Shown in pieces: positions 4,985 through 60,611 of a stretch of DNA of 64,000 bases (position 1 is the first letter of the stretch; every line of letters begins with the position of its first letter). Origin of the DNA: Nitrososphaerales archaeon (GTDB lineage Archaea > Thermoproteota > Nitrososphaeria > Nitrososphaerales > Gagatemarchaeaceae); contig DASPVO010000004.1 of assembly GCA_035622335.1 (NCBI GenBank), positions 1,657-65,656 of the forward strand, read 5' to 3'. The position numbers and the translations under genes are program-made. The notes beneath the pieces were generated by a model that was not told the DNA's origin, made no database searches, and saw nothing but the letters and a program-made list of their open reading frames with translations.

Positions 4985-6619
4985 CTATTTTATGTGTTTG
5001 TACATCGAGGTCAGGTTGACCTCGAAGCCAGACACGGGGACGCCGAGGCCGAAGGAGACCAACGCCTCCGCCTTGACTTCTCCTACATACCCAACGGTCT
5101 TTCCGTTCAAAGCGACAGACGCAGAACGACCAGAGGAGAACGGCCAGTAATCGCGTTGCTTGGCTCGAATGTCGAAGCCAGCTAGGTCCCGACAGAATGT
5201 CTCGAGCTGGCTCTTGGCCTCGCTGAATGACGCCTGTGCGTGTGCGATAAGGGAGCCCAGCATCCAAGACTCCACGATGGTGTTTCCTTTTTTGGAGTAG
5301 ACACGGCCCACCTCGAAGACCTGCTGAGGATAATCCTCCTTTGCATTCTTCACCATGGCTGCGATCAAGGTGGGGAGCAGGGAGTCGCGCAACACGGCAT
5401 GCTCGCGACTTCTGGGCGCCTCCACGGATATCGCTTCGCTCGAAGGTCTGCCGAATTTGGTGTAGACGGAGTCCAGGTCGGTCAGCTCGTAGGTCATCAG
5501 TTCCACCATGCCCGCCCCGGACATCAGGTCGGCTACCTTGTCAGCAAAGACATCGAACCCGTTGAACTGACCAGGTCTCGGCGCGACGGGGTAGACCGGT
5601 CTGATTCTGTCCACACCGTATCCTAGCATGGCTTCCTCTGCTACGTCCACTGGGTGCATGATGTCCTTCCTGTAGCATGGATACAGGACGTTCTCGCCAT
5701 GAACTTCGAGGCCGCATCTCGCTAGACATGTTACCAGTTGTCTTTCCGTGAGGCTCAGGCCCGTAACTCTGGAAACGAGGGACGTGTCGAGGGCCATCGT
5801 TCCTGGAGAGAGGTCAGGCGTCACAACCTCGCCCGTCGGGTATCTGATCCTTACTGATGCGAGCCTACCGCCCATTTCCGAGAGCGTGGTCGCGATAATA
5901 GCGAGCGCTTCGTCAACGCCCCGACGGGCGCCGCCCGTTACTTCCACCAAGAGGGCCCTCGTGTCGGTGCCCACCTTCGTCGCTTCCCCGTTAATGATCG
6001 GCGGGAAAGAGAGCACCGTTCCGGAGGAATCTTCGATGATTGGGAACCTCTTCTCGCCCTTGAGCACCGGGCGGTATTCTCTGCCCGAGGTAGTGGCGTC
6101 GAGGATCTTGTCCATGGTCATCTTGCGAGTAGAGCCGAGCGGGACGAAGCCGAAGCTGCGGCCGACGGTCCTGTACGCGATACTCCCAGTCAGGCCGGAG
6201 CTGTCGTGAAGGCCGATTGCAAACAACCTCCTTCGGCGGCCTAGCCCGTTGTGCAGGTCTTCTTGCAGCGAAACGAGCTGTCGGATGTCTTCGTCGTCAA
6301 GCCTGAGGCCCTTCGCCGCCACGCAGGCTATGAAGGGTCTGACATCCGAGACGCTTCGGTCCACCGACACGACGATTCCGCCTTGTCTGACCTCGTACCT
6401 CTCGAGACCTGTCTTCAGGCCGAGCACCCCACGAAGCGCACGAGCTATCCCATAGTCTGTGCCGAAGTCCGGTCTGTTCGGACTGTACTCCACCCTCACG
6501 GTCTCTCTGTCAGAGCTCTCTATGTCAAGGCCGATGTAGGGCAACCGTTCCTCTATCTTGCTCACAGAGGCGCCCACGAGCTTGGCGAGACGCTTCTTTC
6601 TAATTGCGACGACCGGCAA
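4985..6619 (-). CDS. pheT: phenylalanyl-tRNA synthetase beta subunit
   Basis: 544 aa. The N-terminus (RLPYIGLDIES...VEYSPNRPDFGTDYGIARALRG) is typical of archaeal PheT. Overlaps the pheS stop by 20 nt. Confidence 0.92.
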   Translation of the reverse strand: MPVVAIRKKRLAKLVGASVSKIEERLPYIGLDIESSDRETVRVEYSPNRPDFGTDYGIARALRGVLGLKTGLERYEVRQGGIVVSVDRSVSDVRPFIACVAAKGLRLDDEDIRQLVSLQEDLHNGLGRRRRLFAIGLHDSSGLTGSIAYRTVGRSFGFVPLGSTRKMTMDKILDATTSGREYRPVLKGEKRFPIIEDSSGTVLSFPPIINGEATKVGTDTRALLVEVTGGARRGVDEALAIIATTLSEMGGRLASVRIRYPTGEVVTPDLSPGTMALDTSLVSRVTGLSLTERQLVTCLARCGLEVHGENVLYPCYRKDIMHPVDVAEEAMLGYGVDRIRPVYPVAPRPGQFNGFDVFADKVADLMSGAGMVELMTYELTDLDSVYTKFGRPSSEAISVEAPRSREHAVLRDSLLPTLIAAMVKNAKEDYPQQVFEVGRVYSKKGNTIVESWMLGSLIAHAQASFSEAKSQLETFCRDLAGFDIRAKQRDYWPFSSGRSASVALNGKTVGYVGEVKAEALVSFGLGVPVSGFEVNLTSMYKHIK

Positions 6620-8084
6620 ACTCCACCCTGCTCCTCAACCATCCCAGGTCGCTGTCGTAGAGGCTCCTGATGTCGTCCAAACCATACTTCAGGAGCATCA
6701 AACGTTCGATTCCGGGCCCCCAAGCCAAGACCGGGACTCTAACCCCGAGCGGGACGGTGACTTCGGGCCTGAAGACTCCTGACCCTCCCAGCTCGATCCA
6801 ATCCTTGACAATCTCAGAGTATCCCATGACTTGGAGTGAAGGCTCTGTGTAGGGGAAGAACGTTGGCCAGAGCTTGACACCCCTCATGCCCAACTTCTTG
6901 TAGAACTCCGTCAGAAAGCCCATCAGGTGGCGCACGCTCAAGCCCTCACCGACTATGATACCGTCCATTTGGTGAAACTCGGCGATGTGCTTGTAGTCGA
7001 GACTCTCGTTCCTGTAGACCTTGCTGACCGCGAAGACTCGCGCCTCTCTTTCTCCTGACTCGAAGAGAGAACGGACTGTGAGCACTGTGTTGTGGGTGCG
7101 AAGAACTAGTCTCCTTGCCTCTTCGGTGCTCCAAGCGTACCCCCAGCCCCTGCTCCCCGAGGCCCCTCCTTTCTCGTGAGTGGATGCGACTCTGTCCACC
7201 ACGCCCTTTCGTTTCAGACCAGGTTCTCTGTATCCTGAGATGTAGAAGGTGTCTTGCATCTCTCTACCCGGATGGTCTTGCGGGATGAACAGGGCGTCGA
7301 AGTTCCAGAATGAGGGTTGGATGCTGTTCCCCTCGAGCTCGGTGAAACCCATGGAGAGGTAGACCTCCCTGACTTCGCGTATGAAGTCCCGGACTGGATG
7401 TCTTCTGCCCGGGTACAGCTTCGCTGCGGGTGCTTCGACGTCGATGGGTCTAAGGGGTTTCCTCCAGCCGCCAGAAGCGAGAGCCTCGGGAGTCAGTCTG
7501 TCGAGGTATTCCTCCTGCGAGCCTAGCGCGGCCGAGTCGCCGGCGGCGGTCGTCCTGACCGAGACCGTAGAAACGGTCTCTTCCATCACGTAACCCCTCC
7601 TCATCAAGTCGTCGAGCAATCGCCTGCGCTCATTCGGAACCTCGACTTCGCCAGCCCCCGCCGACAGAGACTCGATCAAGGCTTCTAGAGCCCTTGGCCC
7701 CGACGAGTCTGTCTGGGAGACAAACGGCTTGCCGTCCTTCGATTCGACGCGTATCCATCCGTTCGATCTGGCCCTGCCCAACGCGGCTGAAAATTCGTCC
7801 CCTGAACCGAACTTCTTCCTCAGCTCGTCGAAGCTGACCCCCCCATTCTTCGACACCAGCCTAGACAGAAGGACCTCAGGAGGGGTCTCTTGCTTCACGA
7901 CGAGCTTCCTTGAGGTAGCCTCTTTCGTTTCGACGAGGCTTTTCGAGCCGAGCCATGACAGAGACCTCCTCACCCTGTCTGGGGAGAGACCGCTCGAGTC
8001 GACAAGCTGTTGGAATGTCATCCATCCCCTCCCCCTCAACGTGGACAGGACAGTTCGCTCTATGGGGTGTAATGGGTTGGGCAT
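6600..8084 (-). CDS. pheS: phenylalanyl-tRNA synthetase alpha subunit
   Basis: 494 aa. Class II core motifs: FIPQDHPGREMQDTFY, GGSGVFRPEVT, AWGPGIERLMLLKYG. Confidence 0.92.
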   Translation of the reverse strand: MPNPLHPIERTVLSTLRGRGWMTFQQLVDSSGLSPDRVRRSLSWLGSKSLVETKEATSRKLVVKQETPPEVLLSRLVSKNGGVSFDELRKKFGSGDEFSAALGRARSNGWIRVESKDGKPFVSQTDSSGPRALEALIESLSAGAGEVEVPNERRRLLDDLMRRGYVMEETVSTVSVRTTAAGDSAALGSQEEYLDRLTPEALASGGWRKPLRPIDVEAPAAKLYPGRRHPVRDFIREVREVYLSMGFTELEGNSIQPSFWNFDALFIPQDHPGREMQDTFYISGYREPGLKRKGVVDRVASTHEKGGASGSRGWGYAWSTEEARRLVLRTHNTVLTVRSLFESGEREARVFAVSKVYRNESLDYKHIAEFHQMDGIIVGEGLSVRHLMGFLTEFYKKLGMRGVKLWPTFFPYTEPSLQVMGYSEIVKDWIELGGSGVFRPEVTVPLGVRVPVLAWGPGIERLMLLKYGLDDIRSLYDSDLGWLRSRVEFAGRRN

Positions 8085-12045: not shown

Positions 12046-12463
12046 GGCGAAACGAATTCTCGCCAGCGGGAGGCCGAACTTAAATGTTCTGCTAAAATTG
12101 GGAGATTTGATTCAGACCAGATGAAGTTCCGCTCAAATTGATTGGGCGACCGAAGACCGACTCTTTCACTGTGTTTGAAACCCAGATTCAGAGTAGGTCG
12201 AAGTGCTCTGAGAGCCTTAGCGAGAAGGATGGCGACGTCGAGTGTTTTGAAAGTTGCCAGCATCAGGGCTTCGCAAGGGCTCTCGCACCTCACTAACACC
12301 CTGACGACACACGGTTTGACTTCTGGGGTCGGAAAGAGTCCAGGTCGGACCCGTGCGCTATGGCCGGCTGAGTTTGTCGACTCCGCCAAGGCGATTTAAC
12401 TGTTTTGGGACGGTATCGCTATCCGTCGCCAGCCTAATATCGAACGGCAAATGGACCGCAGCT

Positions 12464-14540: not shown

Positions 14541-14678
14541 GGGGGCGTAGCCCAGCCAGGCAGGGCGACAGGCTCCAGTGGTCAAACAAAACGTTTGATG
14601 ACACAGCAGCGTGGATGATTAGGCATTGGAGCTGCGTAAGAAACCTGTAGACCGCCGGTTCAAATCCGGCCGTCCCCA
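14541..14678 (+). tRNA. tRNA-Trp (CCA) with a ~64-nt intron in the anticodon loop (about 14579-14642)
   Basis: Acceptor GGGGGCG/CGTCCCC. D-arm GCCC-AGCCAGGCA-GGGC. Anticodon stem ACAGG (14568-72)/CCTGT (14644-48) with loop start CTCCAG (anticodon 14575-77). T-arm GCCGG-TTCAAAT-CCGGC. Discriminator A. No encoded CCA. Confidence 0.85.
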
Positions 14679-15777: not shown

Positions 15778-16407
15778 TTGGCAAGGCTCTCCAAGAAAGC
15801 ACTCGACGGTCCGACCCTCCAAGTTGCCCACCGCCTCATCGGGAGCAAGCTCGTCAGGGTGCTCAGAGGCGAGAGACTCGCCGGTCGCATCATCGAGGTC
15901 GAAGCCTACGGTGCCTTCTCGGACCCAGCCAGCCACGCTTACATCGGAGAGACCGCGAAGAACAGGGTGATGTACCTCTCTGCGGGCCGAGCGTATGTCT
16001 ACTTCACCTACGGCTTCCACTATTGTCTGAACGTAGTCACCGAGCCTCCGGGGGTGCCTGCAGCCGTCCTGATCCGGGGACTAGAGCCGCTCGAGGGACT
16101 CAACACCATGAAAAAACTGAGGAAGAGTAACAGTACTGGTGTTCTGTGCAGCGGCCCCGGAAGAGTCACTCAGGCGCTGGCTATCGATGCGGGCTTTAAC
16201 GGGTTGGACATGATCAACTCAGAGACTCTCTTCTTGGAGACAGGGCCCGATAGTCCGGTGGTGAGAACAAAACGGGTTGGAGTGTCGGCTGGGGAGGAGC
16301 GCCTTTGGAGGTTTGTTGAGAATCAACGGGGGAGATCAGAAGATGGCAGAGCGGAAAGAGCCTATATCACCCGAAGAAAACCGGTCACACATGGGGTCGT
16401 CGGCTAG
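15778..16407 (+). CDS. DNA-3-methyladenine glycosylase (MPG/AAG family)
   Basis: LIGSKLVRVLRGERLAGRIIEVEAYGAFSDPASHAYIGETAKNRVMYLSAGRAYVYFTYGFHYCLNVV is the MPG core. The last 15 nt of the ORF overlap the tRNA-Pro 5' end, so the true C-terminus may be shorter. Confidence 0.85.
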   Translation: MARLSKKALDGPTLQVAHRLIGSKLVRVLRGERLAGRIIEVEAYGAFSDPASHAYIGETAKNRVMYLSAGRAYVYFTYGFHYCLNVVTEPPGVPAAVLIRGLEPLEGLNTMKKLRKSNSTGVLCSGPGRVTQALAIDAGFNGLDMINSETLFLETGPDSPVVRTKRVGVSAGEERLWRFVENQRGRSEDGRAERAYITRRKPVTHGVVG

Positions 16408-16537
16408 ATCGCAGTAGGGTGTTAAGCCCGAGAACGAGGCTAGTCTGGTCTAGGCTTCAAGCAACGTTTGGAAGAAGCCTTGGGATTGTGGACAAGAACG
16501 CTTGAGACCGCCGGTTCAAATCCGGCCGACCCCACCA
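16393..16537 (+). tRNA. tRNA-Pro (UGG) interrupted by three insertions (D-loop ~36 nt; 29/30 16 nt; 37/38 14 nt); CCA encoded
   Basis: Acceptor GGGGTCG (16393-99)/CGACCCC (16527-33). T-arm GCCGG-TTCAAAT-CCGGC. Anticodon loop CTTGGG|C with UGG at 16481-83. Strict bulge-helix-bulge motifs surround 16461-16476 and 16485-16498. See findings. Confidence 0.7.
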
Positions 16538-17196: not shown

Positions 17197-19284
17197 TTGC
17201 AAGCAGCACCCCGCCGAGTAAAGACGATCTACAGCGTCATCGCATCTCCTCAGCGCCTCGAGATACTCAGGATTCTGAACATCAAAGGCCCGCTCACTTA
17301 CAGCGCGCTCAAGACTCTGGCGGGCTTCAAGTCGAAGAAGGAGTCGGGAAAGTTTGCGTACCACCTCAGAAAACTGGTGAAACAGCTCCTCATACAGCTG
17401 AACAGACAGGAGAGAAAGTACACCGTGACCAATCTGGGGAGGCTCGTCCTCAATCTCACCCGTCAGATCGAGGAGCAGTCGCTCGTCGAGAGCGGCAAGC
17501 TCTACGTGAGGACCTCCCACCAGACGATGGAGGAGTTCAACGCGAACAAGATCCTTCAGTCCTTGGTCAAGGAGGCCGGGATGCCGGTGGAGCTGGCGCA
17601 GAGGATAACTAGCGAGACTGAGTCAAGGCTCTACAAGTTCCAGACGCAGTACCTCACTGCTCCCCTGATCAGAGAGATAGTCAACGCACTGCTGGTTGAG
17701 CACAGTCTAGAAGAATATCGGCACAAGCTCACTCGGCTGGGGATGCCCATCTATGACGTCACCCAGCTACTGAACAAGGCTGGCGACGACGGAGGGAACG
17801 CAGAGGTCCTGGTCCACGAGACCGGGCATGCCGTCTTCTCGGAATACCTGTTGCTGGAGCAGCTGCCGAGAGACGTCGCCGACGCCCATCTCTCAGGGGA
17901 CATACACATCAGCAGCGCGGGCTCTTGGGGGCTCAATCCCGACTCCGTCTTTGTCGACCTTCTGTCCGTGAGGAGCCGAGGCTTCAACCCCAACGGGAGG
18001 CTCCTGAACGCGCCGATGATGCAGAGCCCCGAAAACGCAGAGAGGGCTCTGAACATAGCGCTCAACCTTTCATCCATGCTGTGCAACGAGGTCTCCGACG
18101 AGATCGTCTTCGGTAACTTCCTCCAGTACCTCGCACCCCACTGCAAGTCGAGAGGGAAGCACGAACTCGAACAGATGATCCTCAGGTTCTTCGAGACTTC
18201 GAGCGCCCCGCTCGCGACGTCCGAGAGACCGACGATAAGCATCGAGCTCAACCCGTTCAGACACGATGAGGTGGGGAGGGACGTGGTGGACAAGACACTG
18301 GATTCGGCGTTGGCGGCCTACAGAGCATACGTGGAGGAGACTCCGAGACCCGACGTGCGGCTTCTTCTCGCAAAACCGAACCGGGTCGACGACACCAAGA
18401 CGCTGAAGGATGCCGCCGCAATAATCTTCAACGGTGGCAGAATAGCCTTCTTCTCGCCAGATTCACGGAGGAGCTTCATGGGCGTGAACGTCGGAGCGCT
18501 ACCTCCAGACATGCAGGCTGACAACATAAGCGTCCTGCACAACCTGAGCCTGAACCTCCCCCGACTAGCCTATGACTCAAACCAAGATGAGACATACTTC
18601 AGAGCTAAACTAGCTCTCCTGATAGGCGTGGCGGCCGACGCTCTTTCCGCGCGAAGACGGGTGGTCGACAAGGTGCTGAAACGTGGGCTTCTACCTGCGC
18701 TCGCCAACGGGTCTGACTCGGTGACGTCCGAGACGATGCCCTTGGTCATGAACTTGGTGGGATTGGACGAGACGCTTGCGAGCCTAGTCCGTGACCCCGT
18801 CTCGCCGCTGAAGGCCGAGCTGGCTGACAAGATCGTTCAAACCGCGGCTCAGGTCGCGGCTGAGAAGTCGAGCAAGAGCGACCGCATGGCGGTGGCCATG
18901 ATGGAGTTGGACGGGGCTCAGAGGATGGCCAGCCTCGACGCGGAGAAGTACGGCAGGGCCAACATCTCCCCTCTGCAGAAGGGAGGCTACTCTCAGTCCC
19001 CCAGGCTCGTGATGAGCGACCTGGAGAATCCCGATAGGGTCGAACAGGTCTCACGACTGTCTTCGGGGCTGCAGGGTGGACTCTCTGTGACTTTGGATGG
19101 GTCGGCGGACGAGGTGAGGGGCGTCTACAACCTGATACTCAACGCGACGCCAAAGCTCCCGTTCTTCAAGGTCGAGAGGACCATATCGGTCTGCAGGAAC
19201 TGCGGTTGGAAGCTTCCACCCAAGGCGAACAGGTGCAAGAACTGCAAGTCCGTCGCCTCCGTCCAGTATTCGACGGCAGTCTAG
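17197..19284 (+). CDS. wHTH (ArsR-like) + ATP-cone + class III ribonucleotide reductase (NrdD)-like protein with C-terminal zinc ribbon but no glycyl-radical motif
   Basis: N-terminus ASPQRLEILRILNIKGPLTYSALK...FAYHLRKL (wHTH). ATP-cone segment EEFNANKILQSLVKEAGMPVELAQRITSETESRL...LIREIVNALL. NrdD-like DAHLSGDIHIS. C-terminus CRNCGW...CKNCKS, then only VASVQYSTAV. Confidence 0.7.
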   Translation: MQAAPRRVKTIYSVIASPQRLEILRILNIKGPLTYSALKTLAGFKSKKESGKFAYHLRKLVKQLLIQLNRQERKYTVTNLGRLVLNLTRQIEEQSLVESGKLYVRTSHQTMEEFNANKILQSLVKEAGMPVELAQRITSETESRLYKFQTQYLTAPLIREIVNALLVEHSLEEYRHKLTRLGMPIYDVTQLLNKAGDDGGNAEVLVHETGHAVFSEYLLLEQLPRDVADAHLSGDIHISSAGSWGLNPDSVFVDLLSVRSRGFNPNGRLLNAPMMQSPENAERALNIALNLSSMLCNEVSDEIVFGNFLQYLAPHCKSRGKHELEQMILRFFETSSAPLATSERPTISIELNPFRHDEVGRDVVDKTLDSALAAYRAYVEETPRPDVRLLLAKPNRVDDTKTLKDAAAIIFNGGRIAFFSPDSRRSFMGVNVGALPPDMQADNISVLHNLSLNLPRLAYDSNQDETYFRAKLALLIGVAADALSARRRVVDKVLKRGLLPALANGSDSVTSETMPLVMNLVGLDETLASLVRDPVSPLKAELADKIVQTAAQVAAEKSSKSDRMAVAMMELDGAQRMASLDAEKYGRANISPLQKGGYSQSPRLVMSDLENPDRVEQVSRLSSGLQGGLSVTLDGSADEVRGVYNLILNATPKLPFFKVERTISVCRNCGWKLPPKANRCKNCKSVASVQYSTAV

Positions 19285-19445: not shown

Positions 19446-21743
19446 ATGACGTCGATAGTTGAGAAACCACGAGACACTACGGATGGAGGAAGTCAGCGCA
19501 GCACCGAGATAAAGCTGCCAGCGGAAACCCTCGCTGCGTTCGGAGGAGACGAACTCCGCGCGAGGGTGTTCTATGAAAAATATGCGCTCCGGGACCCGAC
19601 GGGCAAGCAGGTCGAGAACAGGCCCGAAGACATGTGGAGAAGGGTCGCGACAGAGCTATCCTCGGTCGAGTCAGAGGATGACAAGAGGCGCGAATGGGCG
19701 ACGAAGTTCTTCTGGCTGCTCGAGGACTACCGCTTCGTCCCTGGGGGACGGATACTCTTCGGGGCCGGACAGCCCAGGAAGTCGACGCTGCTGAACTGCT
19801 ACTTCTTCAAGATAAGGGAAGACTCCATCGAATCGATCTTCGACTTTTGCAAGGAGGCCGCCAGGACATACACCTTCGGCGGTGGCGTCGGGACAGACAT
19901 CTCGAACCTCAGACCCAAGGGTTCCCCGGTCAACAACGCGGCGATCTACAGTTCAGGCTCGGTCTCCTTCATGGAGCTGCTCTCCACCACTACGGGGACG
20001 ATAGGGCAGGCTGGCAGGAGGGGGGCGCTGATGATAACGATCAGGGTGGACCACCCTGACATCTTCGACTTCATCAACGTCAAGAGGGACCTGAAGAAGG
20101 TGAACTACGCGAACATCTCAGTCAAGATAACGGACCAGTTCATGAAGGCGGTGGAGAGCGACGGTGAGTTCCTGCTGCACTTCAAGAACGAAAAGGTGGA
20201 GGTCAACAGGACGGTGAAGGCGAGGGACGTGTGGAAGCAGCTCATCAGAGGGGCTTGGGAGTCAGACGAGCCCGGCGTCCTCTTCTGGGACACGATCAAG
20301 AGGGACTCCACCACGGAGTACAACGGGATGGAGGTCGAAGGGGTGAACCCCTGCAGCGAGCAGACGCTCGAGAGCTACGGCTGCTGCTGTCTGGGCTCGG
20401 TGAACCTGAGCTCGTTCGTCAAGGAGCCCTTCTCCGAGAAAGCAAGCATAGACTGGGACTCCCTGGCGAGGGCGTGCCAGTTCGGTGTCCGCTTCCTCGA
20501 CAACGTGCTCGACTACAACGCGGAGAGGCACCCGCTCCCCCAGCAGAAGAAAGCGTCGCTCTGGAGCAGGAGGATAGGCGTCGGGATCACGGGCCTGGGA
20601 GACATGCTGATCAAGCTCGGCCTGAAGTATGACGACGCGTCCACCATAGAGTTCGTCGACCATCTGTTCGAGAGGATCAAGAACCAGATCTACGAATACT
20701 CCACTGAGCTCGCTAAGGAGAAGGGGAGCTTCCCTGCCTTCGACGCGGACAAGCACCTGTCGCAGCCCTTCATCCAGAGGCTCGAGCCCAAGGTGAGGGA
20801 GAAGATCAGGATCCAGGGGATAAGGAACGCGGCGATCTCGACGATACCTCCGGTCGGCTCTGGTTCAATCCTTGCGGGTTGCTCGAGCGGTGTCGAGCCC
20901 GTCTTCGCGCTCTTCTACACGAGGAGGAGCAAGTCGCTCAGCGAGGGCGAGTTCAAGGTCTTCCACCCGCTGGTGAAGGAGTACATGGCGCTCAACAAGG
21001 TCTCGGACGAGCATCAGCTTCCAAGCTACTTCGTGACGGCTCACCAGATCAGACCCGAGATGAGGGTGAAGATGCAGGCTACGATCCAGAAGCACATCGA
21101 CACCGCAATCTCGAGCACGGTCAACCTCGCGGAGGAGACGACTCCTGAAGAAGTGGATAAGATCTACATGCTCGCGTGGAGGATGGGTTGCAAGGGCATG
21201 ACGGTCTACCGAGAGGGGAGCAGGGAGGGCATCTTGGAGACCGAGAAGGTCGCAAAGAAACCCCAGACCCCTTCTGCCGACTTCGAGAGGCCACGAATGA
21301 TGGAGGGCAGGACGATGAAGCTCAGGCTTCCCCAGGGCGGCATCTACGTCACGACCAACATGATAAACGGGGAGCTGAAGGAGGTCTTCGTGACCCTTGG
21401 AAAGTCCGGTGGTGACGAGAAGGCCGACGCTGAGGCGCTAGGCAGGCTGATCAGCCTCTACCTCCAGCACGGGGGGGACATCAAGAACGTCATCTCCACG
21501 CTGAAGGGCATCAAGGGGAAGTACGCTTCCTGGGACGAAGGGACGCAGCTCCTTTCGATACCCGATGCGGTCGCCAAGGCGCTAGAGATGGAACTCAACG
21601 CCGGCAGCCTCTCGGTCGTGTCAGTCCAGGGACAGAAGGGAGAGCCGCAGGCCGCGACGTGCCCGGAGTGCCACGAAAGTGCCCTGATCTTCGAGAACGG
21701 CTGCTACCGCTGCACGAACTGCGGTTACTCCAGATGTGAGTGA
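19446..21743 (+). CDS. nrdJ: class II (adenosylcobalamin-dependent) ribonucleotide reductase
   Basis: RVFYEKYALRD..., FVPGGRILFGAG, LLNCYFF, GGGVGTDISNLRPKGSPV, EGVNPCSEQTLESYGCCCLGS, and a C-terminal CPEC...CTNCGY zinc ribbon. Confidence 0.92.
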   Translation: MTSIVEKPRDTTDGGSQRSTEIKLPAETLAAFGGDELRARVFYEKYALRDPTGKQVENRPEDMWRRVATELSSVESEDDKRREWATKFFWLLEDYRFVPGGRILFGAGQPRKSTLLNCYFFKIREDSIESIFDFCKEAARTYTFGGGVGTDISNLRPKGSPVNNAAIYSSGSVSFMELLSTTTGTIGQAGRRGALMITIRVDHPDIFDFINVKRDLKKVNYANISVKITDQFMKAVESDGEFLLHFKNEKVEVNRTVKARDVWKQLIRGAWESDEPGVLFWDTIKRDSTTEYNGMEVEGVNPCSEQTLESYGCCCLGSVNLSSFVKEPFSEKASIDWDSLARACQFGVRFLDNVLDYNAERHPLPQQKKASLWSRRIGVGITGLGDMLIKLGLKYDDASTIEFVDHLFERIKNQIYEYSTELAKEKGSFPAFDADKHLSQPFIQRLEPKVREKIRIQGIRNAAISTIPPVGSGSILAGCSSGVEPVFALFYTRRSKSLSEGEFKVFHPLVKEYMALNKVSDEHQLPSYFVTAHQIRPEMRVKMQATIQKHIDTAISSTVNLAEETTPEEVDKIYMLAWRMGCKGMTVYREGSREGILETEKVAKKPQTPSADFERPRMMEGRTMKLRLPQGGIYVTTNMINGELKEVFVTLGKSGGDEKADAEALGRLISLYLQHGGDIKNVISTLKGIKGKYASWDEGTQLLSIPDAVAKALEMELNAGSLSVVSVQGQKGEPQAATCPECHESALIFENGCYRCTNCGYSRCE

Positions 21744-37440: not shown

Positions 37441-37733
37441 GACGCGAGCCGGTGGACGGGCCACGGGGGTCTCCTGGGGAAGTTCCTCCCTCACTGCAGG
37501 ACGCACGGCGCCAAGAGGCGCAGCCGGAGACGGCTGGCTCCAGAACAGAAACGAGACCCGACCCATCATGTGCGATGATGGGGCGACCCAGAGATCGGTG
37601 GAGTCGGGATGAAACGGCTGACCCGTGCGGAGCAAGGCCGAACGTGGTCGATGAAACGCCTGCGAGAGACCAGGGTGGGCCGCTCAGCTGAATCCCGTCT
37701 AGAACAGAAGGAGGACTACGGCCGGGACGCGTC
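37441..37733 (+). ncRNA. rnpB: RNase P RNA (type A-like)
   Basis: CR-I/P4 5' strand GGGGAAGTTCCTCCC (37476-90) pairs with the CR-V/P4 3' strand ACAGAAGGAGGACTA (37704-18), leaving one bulged U. GGGATGAAACGG (37606-17) resembles the conserved GGGUGAAACGG element. P1 is GACGCG (37441-46)/CGCGTC (37728-33). An AT-rich TTAATT lies ~25 nt upstream. Confidence 0.8.
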
Positions 37734-48561: not shown

Positions 48562-49178
48562 GCCAGCGTAAGCGCCGCAGAGACGGCTCCCAATCCTGCT
48601 GCGATCTCATCGCCCGCACCGCTCACTATTACCACATCATCGTTTCGCGGGTGTAGCTCCTCCCTGAGCCTCTTCCAAATGGCGCCGGGGAAGTCCCTCT
48701 CGCAGTCCTTCGATCCGTTCGGGACTGTGAACTTGGAGTCTCTGAATACGTACGTGATCGCGCCCGAGGCTCCCACCCTCACCGCAGAATCCCTCTGCTC
48801 GATTCCATGGTTGACACGCGCAGAAGCTCCCCTAACTCCAATCGCTGACTGGAACTTCCCCAACGCGAGCTGAGAGCCTTCCACGTCTACAGTGGCGGTG
48901 ACCCTGCTCGCCAATCTTCGGTATTCTGCTCTCCCCTTTCCAGTGAGCGAGCACCCAGCAGCGATCACCCTCACCAATCCCTCCTCCCTGAGTTTCTTCA
49001 CCACTGTCCGGACTGAGCCGCCACCCAAGCCTGCTCGCTCAGCCAGCGCCTGTCTGCCTATCGTCCCGCTCTGTCCTATGATCATGAAGGCCAAGACGAA
49101 GTGCGCAGGAGAGAAGCTGGGAGATGGCCCCTGCTCGCGGGCGGCGGAGATGCGAATAAGACCGGCGGCTTCCGACAA
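48558..49178 (-). CDS. wHTH-domain putative regulator with an uncharacterised C-terminal domain
   Basis: GTIGRQALAERAGLGGGSVRTVVKKLREEGLV is a winged-helix segment. Divergent from the membrane / DUF4430 pair. Confidence 0.55.
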   Translation of the reverse strand: MSEAAGLIRISAAREQGPSPSFSPAHFVLAFMIIGQSGTIGRQALAERAGLGGGSVRTVVKKLREEGLVRVIAAGCSLTGKGRAEYRRLASRVTATVDVEGSQLALGKFQSAIGVRGASARVNHGIEQRDSAVRVGASGAITYVFRDSKFTVPNGSKDCERDFPGAIWKRLREELHPRNDDVVIVSGAGDEIAAGLGAVSAALTLA

Positions 49179-49217
49179 CGGCTCGGGAAACGGAGTCGTC
49201 GTATAACTGAGTTCCGC

Positions 49218-49817
49218 ATGCAGGGAACACGCAGGAGGCTTTTATACTGGATGGTTTATCCAGCCTGCGTGAAAGGGACGAAGTCTCTGTCGCTCATCAT
49301 CAGCTTCACGGCCATCATAGTCGGCTCAGACTTCGCTCTGGCGGGAGCCCTCGATGTCAAGCTCATGGATTCAATGGTCTTTCTGGCAGCGTTTCTCTTT
49401 GGCTTCAGGGCAGGCGCGGCCATCGGGATCCTCTCAGAGGCAATTTGGAGCTTCGTGAGTCCGTGGGGCGTCGCGGGTGCAATCGCGCCTTTTCTCATTG
49501 CGGGAGAGCTTCTCTTCGCCGCCGCGGGCTGGGCCGCCTCGAGAGTCTGGGGTACGGAGGTCAGACAAGGATCGGTCAAGGCTCTCTTCATAGGCGCGAC
49601 GATGTGCATCTGCGCCTTCTTCTGGGACTTCGAGACCAACGCCGCCACGGCTCTTCTCGGTTACTGGCCTCACCTGACGGTGAGCGAGCTGGTGCTGACA
49701 GAGGTCGCTGGGGCGATGTTCTTTCTGTCGCACGACGTTTCAGACTTCCTTCTCGGTCTGTTCTTCATACCCGCCGCGATCCCTTTGGTCATCAAAGCCT
49801 ACAGATGGAGAGCTTAG
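49218..49817 (+). CDS. polytopic membrane protein resembling ECF-transporter S components
   Basis: About 6 TM helices rich in small residues (FLFGFRAGAAIGILSEAIW...). Start at ATG 49218; the upstream part of the ORF is Arg/Gly-rich and non-membrane. Confidence 0.5.
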   Translation: MQGTRRRLLYWMVYPACVKGTKSLSLIISFTAIIVGSDFALAGALDVKLMDSMVFLAAFLFGFRAGAAIGILSEAIWSFVSPWGVAGAIAPFLIAGELLFAAAGWAASRVWGTEVRQGSVKALFIGATMCICAFFWDFETNAATALLGYWPHLTVSELVLTEVAGAMFFLSHDVSDFLLGLFFIPAAIPLVIKAYRWRA

Positions 49818-50503
49818 ATTTGGTCTCTCGAGGAAATTTCATTGGGATAGCCGCTGTCCTCGTCGCACTGCTTCTAGTCGTCTCCATCCTAGCGGGCTTC
49901 TATTACATCAAGGCAGGGGAGGAGGAGACCGATAGCTCGGACTACGCGAGCGAACTCAGCACCGCTCTTGCTTCGAACACCGTCGCCGCGGGCGGCTTGG
50001 CTGCTTCGCTGAGTCAAGAAAATTCGACGCTCGTGTTGCTGGGGGAGACAGTCTCCGGACTCAATACGAGCTCTTCGGCTTACAAGAACGCGAGCGCACA
50101 GCTTCCAGTTCTCTGGAAGGACTACCTGTCGCTGGCAAAGGAGGAAAAGAGCGTAGTCGAAACGTACTCTGTTCGCATGCTGCTCGTGTATGGCAACGGC
50201 ACAAAGGCATGGTACAACGACACTGTCGTGCAGCCGGGTTGGAACCTCTATGTGTCAACTCTGGTTCTTCTAGGCGGTCGAGTCAACTCTACCTGGTACC
50301 CCGCCTACTCGGAACACTACGTCACAGGGCTCAACGGAGTTCAGGGGAACTCTACAGCTTCATGGTTCCTATGGCAGTTCTCGACAGGAGCCTGGCAGTT
50401 GGCGGAAAGCGGGGCCGATGGGATTCAGGCTGTCAATGGGACCGTCTACGCATGGACACTGTGTGGTTACAACCAGAACTACACCCCGACGTGCAGTCTG
50501 TAG
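49805..50503 (+). CDS. membrane-anchored extracellular protein with DUF4430-like C-terminus; many N-glycosylation sequons
   Basis: Starting at ATG 49805 gives a TM anchor (IGIAAVLVALLLVVSILAGFYY). Multiple NxS/T sequons (NST, NTS, NAS, NGT, NDT...). C-terminus TASWFLWQFSTGAWQLAESGADGIQAVNGTVYAWTL. The first 120 codons of the listed 352-aa ORF overlap the previous gene and are rejected. Confidence 0.6.
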   Translation: MESLDLVSRGNFIGIAAVLVALLLVVSILAGFYYIKAGEEETDSSDYASELSTALASNTVAAGGLAASLSQENSTLVLLGETVSGLNTSSSAYKNASAQLPVLWKDYLSLAKEEKSVVETYSVRMLLVYGNGTKAWYNDTVVQPGWNLYVSTLVLLGGRVNSTWYPAYSEHYVTGLNGVQGNSTASWFLWQFSTGAWQLAESGADGIQAVNGTVYAWTLCGYNQNYTPTCSL

Positions 50504-50726
50504 ATAGCGCTAGTCGCGTCGCGCCTAATACAATCCCTCAGCCGCGACCGTGACTCAGCAGAGGATGGCGGGCTTCGGCCCGTTGAAGCGAGTCGCTTTA
50601 GGGCCGTTTATCGCGATATGTCGAGACCTTCGGTACATAGTGTCGTAGTCTTCAGTGATGGACTTGAAGGGCGAAATCAATGAAACATGACCCAAGACTC
50701 AAAGAAGCAAACGCGAACTTCGACAA

Positions 50727-51926
50727 GTGTTTAAATCGCGCGTGCGCGACAAGGGCCAGTTGAAACAGTCAGTATCGACTCTAGACTTCGAGTCCTATGA
50801 CATAGGCAGCACCCACGGCTTCTTGCCGGAAGAAGAGCCGACGAGCACATTCGGGGACTCGGCCAGCGCCAATCTCAAGTCTCTGGAAGAGTTGGGCAAA
50901 GAGATACCAGAGTTGCTCGAAGAGCACAAGCTTAGGCGTACGGTCGACAAGATGAAGCTGATCCCATCGGGAGCGTTCGAGATGCTTTCGAGGGGTGAAG
51001 TCGTGATGGCGACGAGAATCTACGCCTTCCTCGCGAGCGCGTATGTTCATCAGTTGGAGGAACCGCCCGTGAGAAAGCTGCCGCGCGCTCTGGCTGTCCC
51101 TTTCAGTGGCCTGAGCAAGCGAATAGGAAGAAACTTTCCGATCCTATCTTACGACCTCTACGCACTCAACAACTGGCGAAGACTGGACAAGAACGGTCCG
51201 ATCGCGCTCGAGAACATGGACACCATCCAGAAATTTGTGACGCTGAAGGATGAGCCCTGGTTCGTGCTGGTGCACGTGGAAATGGAGGCCGAAGCCGCCC
51301 CGGCAATCACTTCAATCGGGAGACTGCAGCAAGCGGTCCTGAGGGACGACCAAGAGTCTGCTAGGTTTGCGCTCGAGACGATAGCAGAATCAATCAAGAG
51401 GACGATCAAGACCCTGAATAGGATGCCCGAGGGCAACGACCCAAACCTGTACGCCTTCACCTTCCGGCCTTACATCGGCATGTTCGAGAAGGTGACCTAC
51501 GAGGGCGTCGAGAACCTGGGCAAGTCTCCAACCTTCAGGGGAGAGACCGGCGCCCAAAGTTCCATAATCCCTTCTCTGGACCTCGCTCTTGGGATACGCC
51601 ACCAGAAGACCGGACTAACAGACTATGTGGCGGAGATGACGAACTACATGCCTGGTGCCCATCGAGAGTTCATAGAAGAGGTGAGGAAGAACGAGACCGC
51701 TCGCCCCGTCCGGGAATACATCAGGGACGAGGGGAAGCCGAGCACCGTCAAGAGGTACAACGAGTGCATCGAAACGATAATTGAGTTCAGGCAGAAGCAC
51801 CTCGAATTCGCAGTGAACTACATCTTCACGAAGGTGAAGGACAGTCACGGAACGGGAGGCACACCCTTCATGAAGTGGCTCGCTCAGCTAAGAGACGAGA
51901 CGAAAGAGCAAATACTTCCTACCTGA
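50727..51926 (+). CDS. indoleamine 2,3-dioxygenase (IDO) family heme dioxygenase homologue
   Basis: It aligns by eye along the whole length with human IDO1 as I remember it: YDIGSTHGFLP, RIYAFLASAYVH, LPRALAVPF, FRPYIGMF, FRGETGAQSSIIPSLDLALGI, YMPGAHREFIEEV, FRQKHLEFAVNYI, GTGGTPFMKWL. Confidence 0.8.
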   Translation: MFKSRVRDKGQLKQSVSTLDFESYDIGSTHGFLPEEEPTSTFGDSASANLKSLEELGKEIPELLEEHKLRRTVDKMKLIPSGAFEMLSRGEVVMATRIYAFLASAYVHQLEEPPVRKLPRALAVPFSGLSKRIGRNFPILSYDLYALNNWRRLDKNGPIALENMDTIQKFVTLKDEPWFVLVHVEMEAEAAPAITSIGRLQQAVLRDDQESARFALETIAESIKRTIKTLNRMPEGNDPNLYAFTFRPYIGMFEKVTYEGVENLGKSPTFRGETGAQSSIIPSLDLALGIRHQKTGLTDYVAEMTNYMPGAHREFIEEVRKNETARPVREYIRDEGKPSTVKRYNECIETIIEFRQKHLEFAVNYIFTKVKDSHGTGGTPFMKWLAQLRDETKEQILPT

Positions 51927-51943
51927 GATCCGAGGACGGGGAA

Positions 51944-52354
51944 TTGGACACCGAGGCCGAACGCTTCAAGGCTGCGGTCGTCGCTTCGATACTCGACTCA
52001 AAGACGGAAGATGCGATAGAGATGCTGTCCCGCCACTACCGCGTGAAGAAGCCGAGGCTGGGCGTTGGCGTCTTCGAAGGCAGGACGAAGGGTGTGGGAG
52101 CGGTCTACTCTGTGCAGCGGCGCGAGATAAGAGCCGCCAACAGGGAGTTCTACTACAACCCCTTTGTGATCATCCACGAGTTCTATCATCACCTGAGGTC
52201 TTCAAGCGGGAAGCACAGAGGGACAGAGAAGGACGCCGACAGGTTCGCGATCGACTTCATAGAGGCTTACAAAAGGGTGGCTCGAGGTTACTTGGCGGGA
52301 GAAGCTGGTCACAGGCCCACTGCGGACCACACGTCATCGTCGTTGTCTAGCTGA
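51944..52354 (+). CDS. small HExxH-motif protein (putative mini zinc-metallopeptidase)
   Basis: NPFVIIHEFYHHLRS contains HEFYH. Start guessed at TTG 51944, just after the IDO stop. The maximal ORF from 51875 overlaps IDO. Confidence 0.45.
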   Translation: MDTEAERFKAAVVASILDSKTEDAIEMLSRHYRVKKPRLGVGVFEGRTKGVGAVYSVQRREIRAANREFYYNPFVIIHEFYHHLRSSSGKHRGTEKDADRFAIDFIEAYKRVARGYLAGEAGHRPTADHTSSSLSS

Positions 52355-59480: not shown

Positions 59481-60611
59481 GTGGAACACTACGACGTTCT
59501 GGTGATCGGATGTGGCGCGATGGGCTCGTCGACCAGCTACAACCTGGCTAAGAAAGGTATGAAATCGTTGACGCTCGAACAGTTCGACCTGAATCATCCC
59601 TTCGGGTCTTCCCACGGTAGGACGCGAATCTTCAGAACCGCATACTACGAAGACGCCAGGTACGTACCTCTGCTGAAGCGGGCGAGGGCCCTCTGGGAGG
59701 AGCTCCAGGCGGACTCAGGGAGAAGGATACTCGAGCTGACGGGAGGTCTGATGATAGGAGATCAAGATTCAACTCTGGTACTTGGGGCATCGCAGAGCGC
59801 TAAGCTCCACGGGCTTGATCACGAAGTCTTGTCCGCTTCAGAAGCGATGTCGAGGTTTCCCGCATTCAAGCTGGGAGAAGAGTTGACGGCACTGTACGAG
59901 CCCGCAGCGGGGGTGCTCTTCCCGGAAGAGTGCATCACGGCGTTCGTCTCACTCGCTCAGGGCAGAGGCGCCGAGTTCTCGTTCAACGAAACAGTCGTAG
60001 GCTGGCACAAGGAAGCGGGCGGTCTTCGTGTTCAGACCTCCAAGGGATCATACCTGGCGGATAAGGTGGTCGTCGCGGCAGGCGCTTGGGCGGCGAAACT
60101 CCTCCCCGGAACGCTCGACCTCTCCTGCGAACGCCAAGTCCCCTTCTGGTTCAGGCCGAAGACGGGAGGGTCACATTCCTCACACTCGATGCCCATCTTC
60201 ATCCTCCAAGAGGGGCGGCACATGTACTACGGGATTCCTGACTTCGGGGACGGGGTCAAGGCCGCGGTGCATCACGAAGGTAGGATTGGGGACGTGGAGG
60301 CGATGGAAAGAATGGTGACGCCGGAAGACGAGACGCCGGTGGTGGACTTTGTCAGAAGGCACCTACCCGGAGTTGAAGAGCGGCCGATAAGTTCGACGAC
60401 CTGTGTGTACACCAACACGAGGGATGAGAACTTCGTAATCGACGATGTCTCCTCCAACGAGGACGTTCTGTTGGTAAGCGCCTGTTCTGGGCACGGCTTC
60501 AAATTTTCGAGCGCCATAGGCGAAGCAGTGGCCGAGCTGGTCTCATCTGGGCGAACTACTCAGGACATCGGGTTCCTCAAGCTCGGAAGGTTCGCCCCGT
60601 CGCGCTCGTGA
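59481..60611 (+). CDS. FAD-dependent monomeric sarcosine oxidase / N-methyltryptophan oxidase family enzyme
   Basis: YDVLVIGCGAMGSSTSYNLAK (FAD dinucleotide fold). SACSGHGFKFSSAIGE (covalent-FAD Cys region of the MSOX family). GTG start. Confidence 0.85.
   Translation: MEHYDVLVIGCGAMGSSTSYNLAKKGMKSLTLEQFDLNHPFGSSHGRTRIFRTAYYEDARYVPLLKRARALWEELQADSGRRILELTGGLMIGDQDSTLVLGASQSAKLHGLDHEVLSASEAMSRFPAFKLGEELTALYEPAAGVLFPEECITAFVSLAQGRGAEFSFNETVVGWHKEAGGLRVQTSKGSYLADKVVVAAGAWAAKLLPGTLDLSCERQVPFWFRPKTGGSHSSHSMPIFILQEGRHMYYGIPDFGDGVKAAVHHEGRIGDVEAMERMVTPEDETPVVDFVRRHLPGVEERPISSTTCVYTNTRDENFVIDDVSSNEDVLLVSACSGHGFKFSSAIGEAVAELVSSGRTTQDIGFLKLGRFAPSRS

Follow-up and report, generated by a model that had tools for sequence, protein, structure and literature searches.

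Indoleamine 2,3-dioxygenase (IDO) is a much-studied human drug target, and its prokaryotic relatives are barely characterised. Bacterial members of the family have been known since 2007, from Global Ocean Sampling data (PMC1821046). The clearest active-site contrast separating IDO from tryptophan 2,3-dioxygenase (TDO) has been said to be Ser167 in the former as against His55 in X. campestris TDO; the distal histidine of TDO hydrogen-bonds the indole NH (PMC2652831). We have analysed a 64 kb stretch of contig DASPVO010000004.1 from a Nitrososphaerales archaeon (the window, by which the whole of this stretch is meant), in which an open reading frame (ORF) ending at position 51926 encodes an IDO-family protein. 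The ORF is a real and intact IDO-family gene in a thaumarchaeal genome, a new and uncharacterised member of a well-known enzyme family. For genome annotation it is ordinary, being readily recognisable and having relatives that are already labelled IDO. The reading that we favour, and consider reasonably probable, is that the product, an accessory and stand-alone enzyme, acts as an L-tryptophan 2,3-dioxygenase that bears a TDO-like distal histidine and produces N-formylkynurenine.

An IDO-family gene in an archaeal genome

The sequence-only reading that preceded this work took the ORF at 50727-51926 (+ strand, GTG start, 399 residues) for an IDO homologue collinear with the metazoan and fungal enzymes, with a histidine at the position expected of the proximal haem ligand. 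Both claims hold. The ORF is present as it was described, all four of the motifs that had been quoted are found in its translation, and the search that had been proposed with the Pfam IDO profile, PF01231, gives a significant match of 260.2 bits (E = 3.8e-77, cutoff 26), which extends over residues 21-372 and, of the 412 profile positions, over 2-363, most of the profile's length. When compared with the PDB sequences using phmmer, the protein aligns with human IDO2 over residues 17-397 (E = 1.8e-47) and with human IDO1 over residues 56-397 (E about 5e-33), and the histidine of the archaeal FRQKHLEF is matched to the proximal histidine of the human LRSYHLQI, H358 being placed on human H346. PF01231 is the sole Pfam family reported at E <= 0.01, with no assignment to TDO, and the NCBIfam scan gave no model matches to this protein. 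No PrnB chain occurs among the PDB sequence matches at E <= 1, and on this basis, judged without a direct comparison with PrnB, the protein is not closer to PrnB than to IDO itself.

An AlphaFold2 (AF2) model, calculated from an input alignment of 23 homologues, has a predicted local distance difference test score (pLDDT) of 77.9 and a predicted template-modelling score (pTM) of 0.81. The best 50 of 161 Foldseek matches to this model (E <= 0.001) are all IDO2 or IDO1, with E values down to 3.5e-17 (IDO2) and template-modelling (TM) scores of 0.74-0.83, reaching 0.83 for IDO1. The small and the large helical domains of the IDO fold are both seen in the model.

The true start codon is most likely TTG 50760, to judge from the relatives, rather than the GTG at 50727 that had been adopted 33 nucleotides upstream. 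Translation from TTG 50760 gives a protein of 388 residues beginning MKQSVSTL; the closest IDO relatives have 387-388 residues and begin MEQRVSTL. The TTG is preferred because of this match in length and N-terminus, and because GTG 50727 falls inside a promoter-like element.

50760-51926, + strand: coding sequence of the IDO-family haem dioxygenase, 388 residues from TTG 50760, assigned on PF01231, collinearity, the model and the catalytic residues
50722-50740, + strand: element resembling an archaeal B recognition element (BRE) and TATA box, GACAAGTGTTTAAATCGCG, conserved upstream of IDO

The conserved element, GACAAGYGTTTAAATCRCG (50722-40), overlaps the GTG at 50727. Its consensus, GACAAG(T/C)GTTTAAATC(G/A)CG (50722-50740), is conserved in the window and in two related loci, L081 and L083, where the element is nearly identical and lies at an equal distance, about 25 nucleotides, from the IDO start. 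A TTTAAAT sequence at 50730-50736 is located 27 nucleotides upstream of the TTG, a spacing that suggests a leaderless or short-leader IDO mRNA. About 25 nucleotides is the spacing expected of an archaeal BRE/TATA box driving a leaderless mRNA, and from knowledge of the consensus we infer that the element would act as an archaeal promoter.

Conservation of the active site was assessed in an alignment of 200 sequences, including a 37-member thaumarchaeal clade and 161 other prokaryotic sequences, with the human IDO1 numbering checked against the PDB alignment rows. The proximal haem ligand H358 (human H346) is present in 37/37 clade members and in 160/161 of the other prokaryotic sequences. All 37 clade members also retain R247 (human R231), the arginine that contacts the tryptophan carboxylate, together with Y142 (Y126), F179 (F163), R355 (R343) and Q277/S278 (Q266/S267), and the threonine of the GTGGT loop that contacts the tryptophan ammonium group, T376 (T379), is found in 36. 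Human F226 is conservatively replaced by Y242. The strict conservation of these residues across genomes sharing about 60% average amino-acid identity points to purifying selection.

At the position of human Ser167 every one of the 198 prokaryotic sequences carries a histidine, H183 in the window protein. Because this residue corresponds to the distal histidine of TDO, the prokaryotic IDOs, with the window protein amongst them, are predicted to have a TDO-like distal pocket on an IDO scaffold. The position of human C129 is occupied by tyrosine in 196 of the 198 (Tyr145 here), and the stretch 261-264 is usually G-E-T-G in the prokaryotic sequences as opposed to G-G-S-A in the human enzyme. Compared with the human enzymes, the loop that precedes GTGGT is about 15 residues shorter, a property common to the sampled prokaryotic IDOs. 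The replacement of human Phe227 by Ala243 is specific to the thaumarchaeal clade, whereas bacteria have Tyr or Phe there.

The contig is archaeal and the host is a soil thaumarchaeon (Nitrososphaerota). The window carries a full-length archaeal RNase P RNA (186 bits; 37444-37730, + strand) and a stand-alone 5S rRNA gene (12252-12371, - strand) with no 16S or 23S gene nearby. Its protein-coding genes include those for subunits A, B, D and E of the A-type ATP synthase, as well as for TiaS, aTrm56, Nre, Rad50/Mre11, Pelota, DUF1512 and DUF4443, and archaeal genes lie on both sides of IDO in the one contig. The nearest named IDO homologues belong to soil metagenome-assembled genomes (MAGs) designated 'Thaumarchaeota archaeon' and 'Nitrososphaerales archaeon'. 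The guanine and cytosine (GC) content of the window, 57.6%, is inside the 54-62% range of the Gagatemarchaeaceae, a non-ammonia-oxidising soil family (PMC10640624), an agreement that is suggestive only. The sequence-only reading had allowed for a contig of bacterial or eukaryotic origin; the RNase P RNA, the A-type ATPase, TiaS, aTrm56 and Nre dispose of that concern.

Distribution, phylogeny and genomic site

Relatives of the window protein form 5557 protein clusters at E <= 1e-5, the candidates examined numbering 8000. A scan in which each GTDB species is represented by one genome gives more than 575 loci with IDO relatives, mostly bacterial, those listed being from Nitrospira, Fimbriimonadales, Chloroflexi, Hyphomonadaceae, Myxococcota, cyanobacteria and others. 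In view of these loci, and of the bacterial IDOs known since 2007, the earlier description of the family as eukaryotic with scattered bacterial members has to be abandoned. No characterised archaeal IDO was known to that reading, and we too found no open-access paper that characterises one; the label 'indoleamine 2,3-dioxygenase' is nevertheless already carried by archaeal homologues in Thaumarchaeota and Nitrososphaerales MAGs, in Haladaptatus sp. DFWS20 and in a Nanohaloarchaeon. We found no open paper on kynureninase in Thaumarchaeota, and the Gagatemarchaeaceae paper with its supplements makes no mention of IDO or tryptophan (PMC10640624).

A neighbour-joining (NJ) tree (358 columns, 100 bootstraps) unites the window protein with every thaumarchaeal-named sequence in the 37-sequence clade (99% bootstrap) and splits all prokaryotic sequences from human IDO1 and IDO2 (100%). 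The thaumarchaeal clade nests within the bacterial IDO radiation. Its nearest neighbour is a bacterium of the candidate phyla radiation (CPR) and, further out, there is a group of the Nanohaloarchaeon and Haladaptatus, all of them placed with poor support (29-48%). The phylogeny advised by the sequence-only reading thus delivers the clade and its separation from the human enzymes, but not secure nearest relatives. A definition of the clade as sequences P0001-P0036 was discarded as not monophyletic in this tree, P0036 being outside and P0046 inside.

The gene occupies an identical site in the large contigs L081 (187 kb), L082 (613 kb) and L083 (464 kb), which are from independent sources, and in L002. 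An upstream block consists of Nre, AlaX, an F420-dependent LLM oxidoreductase, a nitroreductase, an FeS-assembly protein, DUF4443 and two small genes, after which comes IDO. The insertion site in L081, L082 and L083 lies between the gene for a 227-residue protein and that for a small protein with an HExxH motif, referred to below as the mini-protein. Two further loci, L084 and the 1.8 Mb L085, share the synteny and lack IDO. They keep the mini-protein, a HIT protein, a periplasmic binding protein, a DAO/MTOX-like oxidase and a Y-family polymerase, and their gap at 7733-8001 corresponds to window positions 50504-51943, an empty site exactly where IDO would be. No IDO remnant was detected at the empty site by tblastn at 1e-5. 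The IDO-less loci have, upstream of the mini-protein gene, an intergenic block homologous to the one that lies upstream of IDO, and this pattern suggests a clean deletion of the IDO ORF in the L084/L085 lineage.

The identity of the IDO proteins to that of the window is 57-68% and that of the flanks, taken as four concatenated proteins, is 58-62%; the two matrices are congruent, each with L082 as its outlier. L085, which has no IDO, falls among lineages that bear the gene and is closest to L083 (65.9%). The codon usage of IDO is the sixth closest to the window mean among 47 window genes, and GC at third codon positions (GC3) is 0.725 compared with a window mean of 0.733. The GC content of the coding sequence, 0.551, is about 1.5 standard deviations (SD) below the window gene mean of 0.579 (SD 0.019). 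The comparison with the flanks that had been recommended therefore finds the gene typical in codon usage and GC3, but somewhat low in overall GC. The simplest reading of these sequence comparisons is that these divergent (about 60% identity) genomes inherited IDO at this site from their common ancestor and that one lineage lost it later. Since some relatives have lost it, the gene is an accessory one.

A mobile island would be expected to show atypical composition, a variable site and flanking mobile elements, and this is not the situation for IDO, with its typical codon usage, its fixed site in four lineages and its congruent divergence. Horizontal acquisition had been put forward as a possibility; given the typical codon usage, the conserved site and a divergence matching that of the flanks, any such event would be old. 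The pattern of presence and absence among syntenic relatives makes for a clean comparison in which to look for genes co-varying with IDO.

The genes downstream of IDO in the window, with the counterparts of the first in other loci, are as follows.

51944-52354, + strand: small HEFYHH gene (136 residues, TTG 51944; HEFYHH...GTE..AD), 18 nucleotides after the IDO stop and co-directional
Homologues of this mini-protein: L081 11184-11567; L083 11172-11606; L002 8301-8675; L082 14113-14496; L085 8001-8375
52541-52999: HIT protein, from the Pfam scan
59481-60611, + strand: DAO-family flavoenzyme, matching the NCBIfam equivalog N-methyl-L-tryptophan oxidase with 419 bits against a cutoff of 257

The sequence-only reading had named the small HExxH ORF, the HIT protein and the flavoenzyme correctly. 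They give no clue to the role of IDO: the mini-protein, the HIT protein and the MTOX-like oxidase are identically arranged in the IDO-less relatives. Because the IDO-less lineage keeps an identical neighbourhood, these neighbours are independent of IDO. The N-methyltryptophan-oxidase-like flavoenzyme is conserved in relatives with and without IDO. A functional link from IDO to this gene or to the HIT gene was considered and rejected, both being present in the IDO-less relatives and displaced in L082.

The mini-protein gene directly follows IDO in the window, L081 and L083; in L002 it comes about 0.5 kb further on, and in L082 about 3 kb. It is also found where IDO is absent, at the matching site in L084/L085 and in another context in L086/L087. 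The gene may be co-transcribed with IDO and is not dependent on it. The 476 members of the family, of about 125 residues, are all hypothetical proteins, and those that are named come without exception from Nitrososphaerota. H78, E79, H82, H83, H91, E95 and D99 are invariant, giving the motif HEFYHH...H..GTE..AD. There is no Pfam match and no PDB sequence match. An AF2 model of it is confident (pLDDT 86.9), and its similarity to HExxH peptidases is weak (E = 0.31 for CapP and 1.6 for deuterolysin); the mini-protein, which is uncharacterised and lineage-specific, may be a new minimal zincin. Assignment as an N-formylkynurenine formamidase partner of IDO was rejected: the family, at 476 members, far exceeds the IDO clade and occurs without IDO, and the zincin match is weak.

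A GH3-family gene (acyl-acid amido synthetase, auxin-conjugating type) is positioned immediately downstream of IDO in L082 (12616-13770, - strand), and an N-terminal-like GH3 fragment lies beside IDO in L002 (7656-7940, - strand); the window has no GH3 gene. Upstream of IDO in the window, ORFs 49101-49817 and 49445-50503 (+ strand) overlap. In relatives this region (49101-50503) holds two consecutive genes, encoding about 183 residues (weakly ECF-S-component-like) and about 227 residues, and by this comparison the 352-residue ORF at 49445-50503 is probably over-extended at its 5' end. Elsewhere in the window two tRNA matches, at 14541-14678 (+ strand, 138 nucleotides) and 16393-16534 (+ strand, 142 nucleotides), span the whole Rfam tRNA model, and both are presumably interrupted by long introns. 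No tRNA was called in the window by ARAGORN. An NrdD-like protein (17197-19284, + strand) has an N-terminal helix-turn-helix/DUF7347 region and an ATP-cone, and directly downstream is a class II-type ribonucleotide reductase with a TSCPD domain (19446-21743, + strand).

Proposed function and its alternatives

Our model of the enzyme is that of a monomeric haem b dioxygenase of the IDO family, which would bind L-tryptophan above the ferrous haem. Arg247 would hold the tryptophan carboxylate and Thr376 of the GTGGT loop the ammonium group, while Tyr142, Phe179 and Tyr242 would contact the indole ring. The distal His183 would be placed, as in TDO, to hydrogen-bond the indole NH, and O2 would be inserted across the C2-C3 bond, yielding N-formylkynurenine. 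Expressed from its putative TATA-type promoter, the gene is of long standing in the lineage, has been lost by some relatives and lies outside any kynurenine-pathway cluster; its probable role would be to scavenge tryptophan or its close analogues oxidatively, or to remove them, in an organism that lives aerobically.

Several observations weigh against this proposal. No characterisation or discussion of an archaeal IDO was found in the open-access literature. The families of kynurenine formamidase, kynureninase, KMO, HAAO and QPRT are represented by 0/58 of the ORFs scanned across the window, which bears out the earlier remark that no formamidase, kynureninase or KMO adjoins IDO, and no kynurenine-pathway genes were seen within 10 kb of IDO in L081-L083. 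Neither the window nor these loci therefore has a clustered pathway, with formamidase or kynureninase beside the dioxygenase. The pLDDT of the model falls below 50 at 243-251, 267-277 and 371-377, which are active-site loops, and the clade-specific Ala243 may alter the substrate pocket. Some IDO-family proteins show weak or no activity with tryptophan, and IDO2 is reported to be weak. The Shewanella IDO-like proteins were without known function in 2008 (PMC2652831).

The alternative that deserves most attention is that the enzyme is a dioxygenase for another indole compound and serves detoxification, signalling or secondary metabolism instead of tryptophan catabolism, the candidates including D-Trp, 5-hydroxy- and methyl-tryptophans, N-methyl-tryptophan, a Trp-containing peptide, tryptamine, indole-3-acetate and indole. 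We think this unlikely, but by no means negligible. It would account for the absence of kynurenine-pathway neighbours in the window and near the IDO of relatives, the change from Phe227 to Ala243 would enlarge the pocket, and a GH3-family gene or fragment is next to IDO in L082 and L002. PDB entries of human IDO2 with 5-hydroxytryptamine (5-HT), 5-hydroxy-, 5-methoxy- and 5-methyl-Trp and D-Trp indicate, moreover, that the family can bind varied indoles. However, the MTOX-like and GH3 genes are not consistently linked to IDO, and the carboxylate Arg and the ammonium Thr are kept throughout the clade and in its relatives among the bacteria. The conservation of these two residues argues that the substrate retains its alpha-amino-acid group, which disfavours indole, tryptamine and indole-acetate and still allows modified tryptophans. 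Along the same lines, there is a rather small chance that the clade starts a route of tryptophan or indole oxidation that lacks the known kynurenine enzymes, or that it acts on a modified tryptophan; such a route might employ an unrecognised formamidase, or have N-formylkynurenine or kynurenine as an end product for signalling or protection. If true, this would be the first defined role for the IDO family in Archaea and in the abundant soil Thaumarchaeota. An entry enzyme of a full kynurenine pathway, leading to de novo nicotinamide adenine dinucleotide (NAD) or to anthranilate, would have chemistry identical to that proposed here, and its partners need not cluster and could be elsewhere in the genome. 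Haladaptatus sp. pairs the two activities, with a kynureninase (Aminotran_5 + KYNU_C) 3 kb from the IDO homologue (L088; 1792-3078, - strand, and 6001-7155, + strand), and at least one archaeal IDO is thus probably part of a kynurenine route. Nevertheless, we regard this explanation as improbable for the window protein: there are no pathway genes in the 64 kb, IDO is missing from a closely nested syntenic relative, which ill suits an essential cofactor pathway, and archaea are generally described as making NAD via aspartate (PMC4217691).

Harder still to credit is a haem protein without catalytic activity, serving to sense or carry O2, NO or CO, or a 'proto-IDO' of very low activity. Molluscan IDO-like myoglobins provide a precedent (PMC1821046), as in their way do the Shewanella proteins, and the window protein resembles the weakly active IDO2 more closely than it does IDO1. 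Gas binding, however, would not require Arg247, Thr376, Tyr142 and Phe179, all of which are conserved at about 60% flank identity. The idea that the gene results from bacterial or eukaryotic contamination, mis-assembly or a very recent horizontal acquisition we give almost no credence. The family is far commoner in bacteria and the GC content of the coding sequence is below the window mean, but archaeal genes lie on both sides in one contig, and four independent assemblies of differing origin have the gene at this same site. Codon usage that is among the most typical in the window and the congruent divergence of IDO and its flanks effectively exclude recent transfer or contamination.

Comparison with known systems

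A tryptophan 2,3-dioxygenase at this locus would add an oxygen-dependent step of aromatic amino-acid cleavage to the predicted metabolism of soil Thaumarchaeota. The protein is collinear over its full length with human IDO2 and IDO1 (PF01231; PDB entries 9uz0, 2d0t and others), at 30% and 25% identity respectively, and has in common with them the two-domain all-helical fold (TM 0.76-0.83), the proximal His, the Trp-carboxylate Arg, the GTGGT Thr, the equivalents of Tyr126 and Phe163, and Arg343. It differs in having His183 for the distal Ser167 (Thr in IDO2), Tyr145 for Cys129, Ala243 for Phe227, G-E-T-G for G-G-S-A at 261-264 and a pre-GTGGT loop about 15 residues shorter. Its host is an archaeon, hence the immune-regulatory context of the human enzymes does not apply.

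The bacterial IDOs (Nitrospira, Fimbriimonadales, Chloroflexi, Hyphomonadaceae, Planctomycetes and others), a homologue group reportedly treated by Yuasa et al. in 2011, are 36-46% identical and of similar length (360-410 residues). They share the distal His, Tyr145, E-T-G and the short loop with the archaeal protein. What sets the thaumarchaeal sequences apart is that they make up a separate clade (99% bootstrap) and have Ala243 at a position that is Tyr or Phe in bacteria. The homologues from Haladaptatus sp. DFWS20 and the Nanohaloarchaeon, which also belong to PF01231 and are annotated as IDO, are 40-42% identical to the window protein. They fall in a different part of the tree, with weak support, and the Haladaptatus gene has its kynureninase 3 kb away, unlike the thaumarchaeal genes.

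The reaction predicted for the window protein is that of TDO (KynA), and each of the two has a distal His placed so as to reach the indole NH (in X. campestris TDO this is His55; PMC2652831). The two are nevertheless of different families: the window protein has no TDO Pfam match, and its predicted architecture is that of the two-domain IDO monomer in place of the TDO tetramer fold. A compact IDO of 388 residues with a natural TDO-type distal His should be useful for dissecting the long-debated role of that residue.

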